A DNA stretch of 49,854 nt. Source: Candidatus Omnitrophota bacterium (GTDB taxonomy: Bacteria; Omnitrophota; Gorgyraeia; Zapsychrales; JBDRMG01). Below, piece by piece: positions 370 through 45,862 of this stretch; within the stretch, counting starts at the first letter, position 1, and the number at the start of each line of letters is the position of its first letter. Both the position numbers and the translations under genes were made by a program. The notes beneath the pieces were generated by a model. That model saw nothing but the letters and a program-made list of their open reading frames with translations. It did no database searches and had not been told where the DNA came from. The DNA lies in contig JBDRMG010000057.1 of NCBI GenBank assembly GCA_043812495.1, forward strand, positions 1 through 49,854. The letters run 5' to 3'.

Positions 370-370
370 G

Positions 371-818
371 GCTTCGCTCGAACGTTTTCACGTTCGAGCT
401 TCGCCTGGCTGCGTTCAATGCTTGCGCATTGAACTTGCCAAGTGAATAAATACTGTGCGAAGCCTGGAGTCAGGCGAAGCTGAACGCGAAAGCATTTCAG
501 CGAAGACTGACCCAGGTAACCGATATAAGAAGCTTCGCTCGAACGTTTTCACGTTCGAGCTTCGCCTGGCTGCGTTCAATGCTTGCGCATTGAACTTGCC
601 AAGTGAATAAATACTGTGCGAAGCCTGGAGTCAGGCGCTAGGCTTCGTTAAAGCGCTTTCGCCTTTAACTTCGCCTGGTTGATAGTCCGGCGAAGCTCAG
701 TACAAAAGTAACTGAGCGAAGACGGAAAGCCAAACACGAAAGTGCTTCGGCATAGCTCAGCATCCTTCGAAGCATCCTGAGCAAGGTCGAAGGACATTTC
801 AGCGAAGACTGACCCAGG
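371..818. repeat. tandem array of REP-like hairpin units between tRNA-Lys and the GIY-YIG gene
   Basis: 371-476 identical to 532-637 (106 bp); catttcagcgaagactgacccagg at 493-516 and 795-818; second unit carries extra inserts 638-726 and 743-794. Confidence 0.9.
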
Positions 819-833
819 CAGAACAATAAATGG

Positions 834-1082
834 ATGGAATATACGGTTTATATTCTAAGAAGCAAATTAAATCCTGAGAAGTTTTATATTGGCTATACAA
901 CAGATTTAAAGAAACGATTAAAGAATCATCAACAACCGAACGAAAGTGCTTATACAAGACGATTTGCTCCTTGGGAGCTTGAAACATACGTTGTTTGCAA
1001 GAATGAACAAACAGCAAAGAACTTTGAAGAGTATCTAAAAAGTCATTCAGGAAGATCGTTCTTAAGGAAAAGATTGATTTAG
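834..1082 (+). CDS. small stand-alone GIY-YIG endonuclease (UPF0213/SLX1-like)
   Basis: YTVYILRS...FYIGYTTDLKKRLKNH...YT...PWEL...FEEYLKS motifs, 82 aa. Confidence 0.9.
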   Translation: MEYTVYILRSKLNPEKFYIGYTTDLKKRLKNHQQPNESAYTRRFAPWELETYVVCKNEQTAKNFEEYLKSHSGRSFLRKRLI

Positions 1083-41748: not shown

Positions 41749-41870
41749 TCGGGAAGGCGGGACTCGCCCGCCTCGCCATTCGCCGTCGTAGGCGAATGGC
41801 GAGCGAGGTCTCGCCCCGCTTTATTCTTGCATTATGTCAGTATGCAAGAAGCGGGGCGGAAACCCGCGAC
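41749..41870 (-). pseudogene. duplicated 3' fragment of tRNA-Pro with a 94-bp insertion in the T-loop
   Basis: tcgggaaggcgggactcg + [41767-41860] + aacccgcgac matches 41899-41926. Confidence 0.88.
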
Positions 41871-43704: not shown

Positions 43705-44412
43705 CTATCGCCAGATAAATTTTTCGCGAATAACTTCAAAGAGATAGGCGGCGCCCCAACGCAAGACTTGGAGTTTTCGCTCTCCCCCTTCTCTTCTGGG
43801 CTCATCACCGGGGATTTCGGCGATTTTGAGTTTGCGCTTGGCGGCGCGGATGGATAAAAGCGGCTCCCAGCTCACATCCGTATGGAATAACCGCTCTTCG
43901 GTTTGATAACTTTTGTCCTTATCAAGATCAAGATCGTAGATCAACTGCGTTTTGTAGGCCCGGTAAATGACCATGGCATCCGTATAGTGACCGCCGTGGA
44001 AAAGATTAATCAGCGATGTAAACATAAAATTACCAAAACCGGTGATGACATCATCATCATAGCTTTTGGCGCCTTTGGCGTAGCGGGAAACAATAACCAT
44101 GTCGTAATCGCCTTCTTTCATTTTATTGATGCAATCAGGAATCAATTCGGGAATAGAGTTTCCGTCAGGACTAAAGGTCAAGACCACGTCTCCCTTGATG
44201 TAAGGCAAGGCCTCATTGTAGGCCTGGCGAAGCCCCATTTTCTTCTGAATAATGACGTCATAACCTTGCTCTTTGGCGTATTCGGCTGTACCGTCGGTCG
44301 ATTGACCGTCGACAACAAGAATTTGGTCGCACCATTCGGGATTGATTTTGGGCATGATGGTCTTCATGCCTTCTATTTCATTGAGCGTGGGAATAAAAAG
44401 AGTGACTTTCAT
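43705..44412 (-). CDS. glycosyltransferase family 2
   Basis: IPTLNE, VVDGQSTDGT, SPDGN, VIVSRY. Confidence 0.92.
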   Translation of the reverse strand: MKVTLFIPTLNEIEGMKTIMPKINPEWCDQILVVDGQSTDGTAEYAKEQGYDVIIQKKMGLRQAYNEALPYIKGDVVLTFSPDGNSIPELIPDCINKMKEGDYDMVIVSRYAKGAKSYDDDVITGFGNFMFTSLINLFHGGHYTDAMVIYRAYKTQLIYDLDLDKDKSYQTEERLFHTDVSWEPLLSIRAAKRKLKIAEIPGDEPRREGGERKLQVLRWGAAYLFEVIREKFIWR

Positions 44413-44456
44413 AGATTTTTTCCTTTTAAGTTGGCTAGATGAACAACAAAAAAATG

Positions 44457-44522
44457 TCCGTCAACTTTGTAAAACAAAGTTGACGAGATCTCGCTATCCC
44501 GATGCCTCATCGGGATAGCGGA
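44457..44522. mobile_element. 66-bp tccg...cgagatctcg...cgga double-hairpin inserted in the CCA of tRNA-Gly
   Basis: removal restores GCCCGC-TCCA on the minus strand; same frame at 41767-41860 and 45174-45246. Confidence 0.8.
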
Positions 44523-44523
44523 G

Positions 44524-44594
44524 AGCGGGCGATGAGAATCGAACCCACGTATCAAGCTTGGAAGGCTTGTGTTCTACCACTGAACTACGCCCGC
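44524..44594 (-). tRNA. tRNA-Gly(TCC)
   Basis: GCGGGCG/CGCCCGC acceptor, CAAGC-CTTCCAA-GCTTG anticodon arm. Confidence 0.95.
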
Positions 44595-44616: not shown

Positions 44617-44734
44617 TGTTCTGCCATCCCGACATTCCTTCGACTTATCGTCGAAGTCAGTCGGGACCCCGACCTCCGACTTTTCTGTTTATTGGATTGT
44701 GGAAGTCGGAGTGTCGGGGCTGAACTACGCCCGC
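44617..44734 (-). pseudogene. duplicated 5' fragment of tRNA-Gly with a 93-bp double-hairpin in the D-loop
   Basis: tgttctgcca + [44627-44719] + ctgaactacgcccgc versus tgttctaccactgaactacgcccgc of the intact gene. Confidence 0.85.
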
Positions 44735-44775: not shown

Positions 44776-45051
44776 GCCCCGAGTTTCTCGATTATTACGG
44801 TTTGAAACGAGGGGCAAGTCTATTTAAGAGCTAATCCCTCGCGCTTGTCATTAAACAATGTGCGCTCGGGACAACAGTTTTTGTTTTCTAAATAAAGGAA
44901 TTAAGGAACAAAAACCGGTGTTCTGCTTCGCTCTAAGACTTACGTCTGAGAGCTTCGCAGCAACATTCTTCTTCGCCCTAGTAGGTTGATTGCTTCGAAG
45001 CCAAAGGCGGAGTCAGGCAAAGCCTGACGGAAGCACTTTGGCGAAGAAGAA
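44776..45051. repeat. cluster of hairpins between tRNA-Tyr and tRNA-Gly
   Basis: gccccgag...cgaggggc, tccctcg...ctcggga, tgttctgcttcgc...gcttcgcagcaaca (44919-44965), ttcttcttcgcc...ggcgaagaagaa (44966-45051). Confidence 0.8.
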
Positions 45052-45135
<84 letters not shown>

Positions 45136-45155: not shown

Positions 45156-45521
45156 AGCCGATGAGAGGCTTCGTCCGTCATCCCGACTTTTCGTCTGGAT
45201 GACGAGATCTCGCCCGTCATTTGCCTTTGGCAAATGACGAGGCGGAAACCCCCGACCCGCTGATTACCCTCGCTATCGCTCGGGATTAATTCGCGCAGTA
45301 ACTTACGTCACTTATGTTCCGTAAGTTACGCGCTCATGAACAAATCAGCTGTCCGTCCCGCCTTTCCTCTGAATTAATTGTTGAGGTCGGGACTTGCAGG
45401 CTTTTCTGTAAATACATTATTGAAGCCGACACTTCGGCTTCCACAATAAAATATGAGAAGAGCCGAAGCGACTTCCAAAATGCAAAAAACAAGAAGAGTC
45501 GGAGCAGCTGAGCTACAAAGC
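45156..45521 (-). pseudogene. copy of tRNA-Thr(TGT) broken by insertions in T-loop, anticodon and D-loop
   Basis: segments agccgatgagaggcttcg / aacccccgacccgctgatta / caaatcagctg / cagctgagctaca match 45655-45727 in order. Confidence 0.85.
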
Positions 45522-45536
45522 ATCAAAAACTATAAC

Positions 45537-45862
45537 TGGAGCTGGCGAGAGGAATTGAACCCCCAACCCGCTGATTATCCCTCGCTATCGCTCGGGATCC
45601 CTCATGGAGTTAAGAAATCAATAAGGAATCCCGAGTCGATAGTTTTTCTAAAAAAGCCGATGAGAGGCTTCGAACCCCCGACCCGCTGATTACAAATCAG
45701 CTGCTCTACCAGCTGAGCTACATCGGCATTAAATTTTCTTTAATCGCCGAGGGACAAATCAGCTGCTTTATCCCGACTTTCCTAATCAAAAATTGTGGAG
45801 GTCGGGACTCCGACTTCCACAATTTAAAATGAGAAAAGTCGGAGCAATTGAACTACGCCAGC
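45537..45862 (-). pseudogene. outer tRNA-Thr(TGT) gene (GCTGGCG...CGCCAGC-TCCA) split in anticodon and D-loop
   Basis: 3' half 45537-45577, middle 45755-45770, 5' end 45845-45862. Confidence 0.85.
45655..45727 (-). tRNA. tRNA-Thr(TGT), intact, nested within the split outer tRNA-Thr
   Basis: GCCGATG/CATCGGC acceptor, GCTGA-TTTGTAA-TCAGC anticodon arm, TTCGAAG T-loop. Confidence 0.93.

Follow-up and report, generated by a model that had tools for sequence, protein, structure and literature searches.

Organization of the tRNA-Gly(TCC) locus

The window, by which we mean the entire analysed stretch of 49,854 nucleotides from a Candidatus Omnitrophota genome, carries on its minus strand a Thr-Tyr-Gly tRNA cluster that is kept at the corresponding loci of relatives. 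The tRNA-Gly gene is interrupted within its terminal CCA by a double hairpin, here termed family A. The principal features are as follows:

41767 to 41860, minus strand: third copy of family A, inserted in a partial 3' duplicate of tRNA-Pro, within its T-loop (copy catalogue)
43705 to 44412, minus strand: GT2 glycosyltransferase gene downstream of tRNA-Gly, with a similar start behind several orthologous Gly genes
44448 to 44486, minus strand: second stem of the insert plus a pre-existing run of seven T, an intrinsic-terminator-like site where the tRNA operon ends (pattern match only)
44455 to 44456, minus strand: C75-A76, displaced from the once-encoded CCA (from sequence and orthologs)
44457 to 44522, minus strand: family A double-hairpin insertion, 66 bp, without duplication, with a TCCG end and a CGGA end
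44459 to 44485, minus strand: 12-bp stem of the insert, perfectly paired
44484 to 44493, minus strand: core of the insert, CGAGATCTCG (sequence reading)
44492 to 44520, minus strand: 13-bp stem of the insert, perfectly paired
44523, minus strand: C74, stranded on the tRNA side of the insert (sequence reading)
44524 to 44594, minus strand: tRNA-Gly(TCC) body, nucleotides 1-73 with U73 at 44524; sole Gly(TCC) gene in the assembly
45052 to 45135, minus strand: tRNA-Tyr(GTA) (ARAGORN, Rfam)
45174 to 45246, minus strand: second copy of family A, lying at GGTT^CGAA in the T-loop of a tRNA-Thr copy that is disrupted (about 45156-45521), used as a boundary control
45655 to 45727, minus strand: tRNA-Thr(TGT), intact (ARAGORN, Rfam)

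On the minus strand, CATCGCCCGC is followed by T (44524, U73), C (44523, C74), the 66 bp of the insert (44522-44457), CA (44456-44455) and the run of seven T (44454-44448), and excision of 44457-44522 in silico yields GCCCGC-U-CCA. The tRNA-Gly itself is called by both ARAGORN and Rfam (71 bits), and the Rfam scan returned only tRNAs above the gathering score. The insert does not fit a tRNA intron of the group I, group II or BHB type, as position 74/75 lies outside the tRNA body and nothing besides tRNA matches Rfam at the gathering level. As DNA, it folds with a z-score of -11.4, and none of 200 shuffled sequences was equally stable. The perfection of its two stems argues for a young insertion. 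The second stem, together with the run of T, forms a candidate terminator that may now end the operon; the underlying pattern scan found 5 sites in the region against 2.1 expected. No reads covered 44429-44509 in two DNA sequencing runs.

Several disrupted partial copies of tRNA-Thr and tRNA-Gly surround the intact genes on the minus strand (45754-45862, 45156-45521, 45540-45577 and 44617-44734), with differing hairpins in the D-loop, 3' of the anticodon and in the T-loop.

Ancestral state of the tRNA-Gly end and probable maturation without an encoded CCA

The original prediction placed the insertion exactly between the two Cs of an encoded CCA, and the removal of the insert, which gives U-CCA, bears this out. 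Its coordinates and length for the insert were correct, while the letters it gave were a harmless plus-strand reading. It had further recognized that the trailing CA would be a chance match if orthologous genes lacked the CCA; however, CCA is encoded in 20 of 28 Gly(TCC) orthologs, the set comprising the 29 best-scoring loci of 60 relatives less one that proved to be Gly(CCC). The sole relative from the same family has a tRNA-Gly with neither CCA nor an element at this site. The boundaries of the insert are fixed independently of the CCA by other copies: removal of the unit from TCCG to CGGR at T-loop copies restores the T-loop (GGTT^CGAA or GGTT^CAAA) without any duplication. Hence, the empty site reads U73-CCA, unless a base was changed after the insertion.

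The suggestion that such an insertion would be tolerated is also supported. Only 9 of the 42 anchored tRNA genes of this genome encode CCA (possibly 9 of 41, as a 'Leu-GAG' call on C16 is probably a false one by ARAGORN), and two nucleotidyltransferases are present (C18:67636 and C2:52060). One of these matches the A-adding family best and the other the CCA- and CC-adding families, both below curated cut-offs, a combination which fits a split addition of CC and A. Systems with separate CC- and A-adding enzymes are established in other bacteria. RNase E/G and RNase PH-domain genes are present (RNase PH and PNPase being judged by their layout), while neither RNase Z nor RNase II/R could be detected in the genome, which is 90% complete, though most of its tRNA genes lack CCA. 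In the minimum-energy fold of the precursor the cloverleaf is kept, and U73 and C74 pair with a GAGA of the insert, so their predicted release would need an endonucleolytic cut or unwinding. The gene is probably a working one, since the assembly has no other for Gly(TCC) and GGA codons are frequent (8383 of the 29508 Gly codons in long frames). Taken together, enzymes of the cell can probably restore the lost CCA, and tolerance of the split is plausible.

Structure, distribution and insertion sites of the family A element

Family A units share the layout TCCG-stem-CGAGA(T/C)CTCG-stem-CGG(A/G). About 44 copies are present in this genome in the loosest catalogue, which was made without a shuffle control; stricter scans, which miss nested copies, recovered 31, 30 and 25 against none in shuffled sequence. 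The stems differ in sequence between copies, with their complementarity kept. The end bases covary with the core: the right end pair is C-G in 15 and T-A in 9 of 24 unique metagenome copies, and the left end pair is T-A in 21 and C-G in 3 of 24 copies from this genome. These pairs were counted directly, an alignment of the elements by MAFFT being too gapped for the purpose. Their covariation indicates that each half is a bulged hairpin and that the unit is a head-to-head dimer of two such hairpins, as read from sequence. A classical MITE, with terminal inverted repeats of 15-30 bp and a target duplication, is a poor match, as the ends of family A are inverted over 4-7 bp only and no duplication is seen.

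By hand tally in this genome, the base 3' of the element is C in 43 of 44 copies (CA in 28), a count favoured by our choosing, for symmetric cores, the orientation with C on the right; the base 5' of it is T in 36 of 43 and C in 2. In relatives, C follows the element at 17 of 23 sites not scored as home sites (see below). A single larger palindrome accommodates around 22 of the 44 copies in its loop, and another 6 are inserted in family B, an unrelated set of elements described below, so the independent insertion events are nearer 19, with about 10 in tRNA sequence. Dispersed copies are mainly found in hairpin loops, including tRNA T-loops, and most tRNA-associated copies in this genome lie in the T-loops of partial duplicates, namely of Met (two), Arg, Pro, Thr, a second Pro, and Leu, the last with a degenerate end. 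Further copies occupy the D-arms of Ser and Val, where the empty sites are restored exactly. The sequence U-C-C-A offers a single N^CA site, that between its two Cs. Thus, the precision of the C^C insertion follows from a general before-C rule, and no targeting of CCA is needed.

Beyond this genome, family A was detected in 31 of 168 genomes of the order, with no control matches. A T-loop-anchored junction pattern run over 401 genomes of the phylum matched only this genome. In a scan of genomes of all species, the titles of the matches listed came from many unrelated taxa; five of the listed matches were inspected, and one proved a true copy, in a Ca. Omnitrophota MAG (L101). At a further locus (L343, in genome G153), two family A copies lie within one tRNA-Met sequence, one in the T-loop and the other at C^C of the 3' acceptor strand.

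A home site on tRNA-Ser and its link to a GIY-YIG nuclease

In relatives, family A has a distinct home at the 3' end of tRNA-Ser, and it is linked there with a nuclease gene, a connection that went unseen in the original prediction. The home layout is tRNA-Ser...CTC, then the element as TCCGCCA-stem-CGAGA(T/C)CTCG-stem-CGG(A/G), then TCCGCC(A). A GIY-YIG nuclease gene usually stands on one side of this layout, behind or before it. The left arm TCCGCCA equals nucleotides 70-76 of tRNA-Ser and restores the CCA, as seen in the sequence, and a displaced TCCGCC(A)-like copy usually lies 3' of the element. Seven relatives in the order hold 9 such loci, and a GIY-YIG gene stands directly after the element in two of these and before the tRNA in a third. 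Tandem arrays of the home unit also occur. Of 24 unique metagenome home copies, 20 have CTC as their left flank, and every one has TCCG as its right flank.

The nuclease is a single-domain GIY-YIG protein of about 80 aa that matches PF01541. No NCBIfam family was found for these proteins and a cluster look-up returned no names; their relatives in the PDB are UPF0213 proteins. A metagenome search was carried out with the protein from the loci of the order, from which the best 80 of 192 loci were taken and those redundant or with under 200 bp upstream were dropped. Among the resulting non-redundant loci with at least 60% identity, 47 of 52 nuclease genes lie directly behind tRNA-Ser and 49 of 52 have the core upstream; below 60% identity, the figures are 1 of 10 and 0 of 10, respectively. 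All four tRNA-Ser isoacceptors are represented (GGA 18, GCT 17, TGA 10 and CGA 4 genes), and the loci cover 33-64% GC, which suggests that the cassette has spread across lineages.

Within the order, tRNA-Ser lies within 500 bp of 15 of 21 nuclease loci. Family A is present in 14 of 18 genomes with the nuclease clade and in 17 of 150 without it (Fisher p = 6e-9, a value overstated since kin are not independent). Clade membership required an E-value of at most 1e-28, and the three weakest matches, beside Met or Asn, were scored as lacking the clade. The exceptions, namely 17 genomes with the element and no clade member and 4 with the converse, come from incomplete MAGs. The clade has support values of only 81/59 in a tree whose rows were picked by similarity. 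Its member in the present genome lies at C51:2917, before tRNA-Ser(GCT), with variant hairpins on its flanks, and its 135-aa frame extends into the hairpins.

A matching double-hairpin variant lies beside a diverged nuclease at two tRNA-fMet loci (L287, L290). At L287, L288 and L290, a sister double hairpin sits at the fMet 3' end upstream of the diverged GIY-YIG gene, and its arms equal the fMet end; these sister hairpins possibly represent tRNA-specific retargeting. A variant of family A also abuts the 5' end of tRNA-Ser, both in this genome (C4:17451, C4:13804 and C51:3381) and at L308-L325. Read on the opposite strand, the tRNA-Ser 5' end resembles the 3' one (CCTCTCC), so the gene is targeted on either side.

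A second hairpin family at tRNA discriminators

The hairpins at tRNA-Tyr and tRNA-Lys belong to family B, which is marked by the feet TTCTNCTTCGC and CTTCG and is represented in the window by the following features:

370 to 817, plus strand: CTTCG-footed array starting from the tRNA-Lys(CTT) discriminator (tRNA at 297-369), right end approximate
834 to 1082, plus strand: gene for an 82-aa single-domain GIY-YIG protein after the Lys array, of the family B clade and not the family A clade
44921 to 45051, minus strand: composite (TTCTNCTTCGC...GCGAAGNAGAA) after the tRNA-Tyr discriminator, with a CA...CA duplication followed by CCG, unrelated to family A

The 3' flanks of all 42 anchored tRNA genes were checked across the genome. 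In nine of them (four Ser, Tyr, Lys, two Arg and Gln), and also in the tmRNA, family B begins at the discriminator or no more than a few bases from it, and thus favours discriminators. Of 55 end readings, in which many elements were read from both ends, 36 show an identical dinucleotide (TA, CG or CA) to either side of the element; examples are CA|element|CA-CCG at Tyr and CA|element|CA-CCA at a Val copy. Three family B GIY-YIG genes, including that at 834-1082, form a separate clade (100/98).

These observations divide what had been taken for a single hairpin system at Gly, Tyr and Lys, a view which does not hold, since two unrelated families were lumped in it. The position of the Tyr hairpin pair directly after the discriminator was correctly seen, but in sequence the pair belongs to another family than the Gly insert. 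Its span of 44919-45051 took in the duplicated CA at 44919-44920, although the CCG after that CA was rightly read. Likewise, the Lys array does begin at the discriminator, though as an array of family B. The preference for tRNA 3' ends proposed in the original prediction is true of family B and of the tRNA-Ser home of family A in relatives, but not of family A in this genome, where 1 of 44 copies lies at an intact tRNA 3' end.

Comparison with known systems

The closest parallels lie in two kinds of nuclease- or transposase-linked hairpin repeats. In the Ssn nucleases (SsnA, cd10448), as presented in the main text of PMC11893778, a tiny single-domain GIY-YIG gene is tied to oriented NTS/SRM hairpin repeats that are dispersed genome-wide, SsnA makes its nick in ssDNA immediately 5' of the hairpin, and the unit has been put forward as a domesticated mobile element. 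The family A nuclease, which has relatives of 80 aa, is similarly a small single-domain protein of the GIY-YIG class, with its gene flanked by the cognate repeat (the core lying upstream, as above). Unlike the Ssn repeats, family A is a head-to-head double bulged hairpin with an arm that copies the tRNA-Ser 3' end; the word 'tRNA' occurs 0 times in the main text of PMC11893778. The family A nuclease also lies far in the tree from the SRM-flanked GIY-YIG protein of this genome (on C64), which sits on a long branch with its placement unsure. Presumably, it resembles instead the SLX1-like cd10449 group.

With the REP/REPIN/BIME elements and their RAYTs, as they are portrayed in PMC3333891 and PMC3733652, family A shares inverted dimers of imperfect hairpins, lack of duplication, nesting in other palindromes and a site rule at the dinucleotide level. 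It differs from the GTAG- and CGTC-tagged repeats covered there in having no GTAG and CGTC-like starts in some arms only (PMC3333891, PMC3733652). Its home on tRNA-Ser is a further difference, and no Y1 transposase was found beside the element at the seven Y1 loci of this genome.

At integrase-type att sites in tRNA 3' ends, the incoming DNA supplies the last bases of the tRNA. Family A likewise supplies the tRNA end and displaces the original (TCCGCCA being repeated), but the overlap is only 4-7 bp, a GIY-YIG and not an integrase gene is found at the home site, and the dispersed copies have no overlap at all. Among GIY-YIG proteins, SegB of phages T4 and T6 is a free-standing homing endonuclease in a tRNA cluster (PMC13096335). 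The family A nuclease gene is comparable to it in being free-standing and adjoining tRNA genes. SegB, however, is longer, homes on dsDNA and is not known to come with a dispersed family of non-autonomous hairpins. On the whole, the family A system appears from its sequence features to work like Ssn/NTS and REP/RAYT, and may belong to neither. We found no description of a tRNA-Ser-linked GIY-YIG hairpin element in the open-licence PMC and bioRxiv literature, subscription journals being outside the scope of the search.

Possible mode of mobilization

The insertion of family A is precise and free of duplication, it follows a site rule, and its home layout and its co-occurrence with the nuclease clade are directly observed. 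By analogy with Ssn, we infer that the nuclease mobilizes the element. We consider it fairly probable that the tRNA-Gly insert is a gene-less dispersed copy of the tRNA-Ser-homing double hairpin, moved most likely by the linked nuclease. Under this proposal, the tRNA-Gly end would have offered CTC^CA, which combines a home-type left flank with the usual right flank, and the CTC might be the cause of the hit. The element would have landed between C74 and C75, and the arm of this copy (TCCGCTA) does not rebuild the CCA. The gene would have survived in a cell that, judging from its gene content, matures most of its tRNAs from genes lacking CCA, the transcripts being trimmed before CC and then A are added. 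The mover would most likely be the tRNA-Ser-linked nuclease encoded at C51:2917, which would nick ssDNA at the base of the bulged hairpin in the way that SsnA nicks at its own hairpin; the unit would then be copied in through host repair or through template switching. To our knowledge GIY-YIG nucleases have no joining activity, so a second factor would be needed. Furthermore, the home element is followed by T and the dispersed element by C, and a single cut rule does not explain both.

An alternative is that a REPIN/BIME-type unit was moved in trans by an HUH Y1 transposase (RAYT or IS200 TnpA), the GIY-YIG gene being a mere passenger of tRNA-Ser. HUH Y1 enzymes cut and rejoin ssDNA at a dinucleotide without duplication, and family A is, like REP dimers, an inverted pair of bulged hairpins lacking a target duplication. 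TnpA-REP, as reported in PMC3333891, requires only C|T and joins strands. Seven Y1_Tnp matches are present in this genome, and a flank of one RAYT has CGAGACCT in common with the family A core. We nevertheless regard this alternative as unlikely, given that none of the seven Y1 loci has a family A double hairpin in its flanks (up to 400 bp, some ended by the contig), that the TCCG/CGGR ends lack the GTAG tag, and that the tie between the element, tRNA-Ser and a single nuclease clade would go unexplained.

The variation of stems that stay complementary, the resemblance of the core to the reverse complement of the tRNA-Ser end and the terminator-like site made by the Gly copy could also be understood if hairpins arose in place at tRNA genes, through fold-back during replication or through template switching, and were kept as terminators or processing signals with no dedicated enzyme. 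This is quite unlikely in light of the precise boundaries, of identical ends and core at unrelated sites in the 31 order genomes and across 33-64% GC, and of a presence that follows the nuclease clade.

A single system with a preference for the CCA ends of tRNAs as such, which also hit Tyr and Lys, would accord with the split CCA of tRNA-Gly, the family B elements at discriminators and the home of family A, but is very improbable and, as far as CCA-specific targeting goes, already largely refuted by the different family and 2-bp duplications of the Tyr and Lys elements, by the absence of an insertion at that position in the 9 CCA-encoding tRNA genes of this genome, and by the CC^A junction itself, which occurs in only 1 of 401 phylum and 1 of 168 order genomes. 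Five other matches in the order to the 13-nt junction were rejected, none of them being a tRNA locus. No IS110 transposase and no reverse transcriptase were found in the 90%-complete genome, leaving a bridge-RNA and a retro route, respectively, unsupported.

Extending the nuclease-driven reading, we tentatively propose, as a possibility rather than an expectation, that family A represents, in non-autonomous form, a class of mobile DNA that has not been described before and has the GIY-YIG nuclease of about 80 aa as its sole protein. Its ends would mimic a tRNA acceptor end (that of tRNA-Ser, or of tRNA-fMet in the sister clade). It would home by restoring tRNA 3' ends, form arrays since each insertion recreates the target, and give rise to off-site copies through host repair, the split CCA being an off-target event survivable only by virtue of CCA-adding enzymes.

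Implications

By itself, the split CCA is a tolerated one-off accident, and its importance lies in the family behind it, a variant of nuclease-linked hairpin repeats that we did not find described. Most bacterial hairpin repeats are attributed to Y1 transposases, and that the Ssn units are mobile elements is itself only hypothesized. In the present case, a hairpin whose ends are defined varies together with a nuclease clade and a tRNA target over many genomes, and the non-autonomous copies supply exact empty and filled junctions. Together these make the question of whether a tiny GIY-YIG protein spreads hairpins testable with short oligonucleotides, and the clade may yield new sequence-specific ssDNA nucleases. 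The tRNA-Gly gene also illustrates how a single event can remove an encoded CCA, and raises the question of how a tRNA is matured beside a 13-bp stem where RNase Z was not found.

Other GIY-YIG and hairpin loci

PF01541 has 16 matches in the 1.9 Mb of this genome, of which 15 are small genes and about 11 lie near tRNA or tmRNA genes. A complete family B cassette is seen on tRNA-Ser(GGA) at C4:17541-17935, with the order CG|hairpin end, GIY-YIG gene, hairpin end|CG. At C64:52802-53020, a GIY-YIG gene lies between CGTC/SRM-like inverted repeats and probably represents a genuine homolog of Ssn. On C20, C32, C39 and C63, a family B end in which a family A copy is nested recurs in nearly identical form, five times in all and for the most part where contigs end, which points to a multi-copy mobile element that has been collapsed. 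At C51:8274-8867, the tRNA-Asn(GTT) call includes an intron of 518 nt that apparently contains an HNH-like frame, and a GIY-YIG gene stands between a 5' tRNA duplicate and this tRNA-Asn gene. In another genome (G059, locus L326), a group I intron-like sequence apparently interrupts tRNA-fMet right after a GIY-YIG gene.
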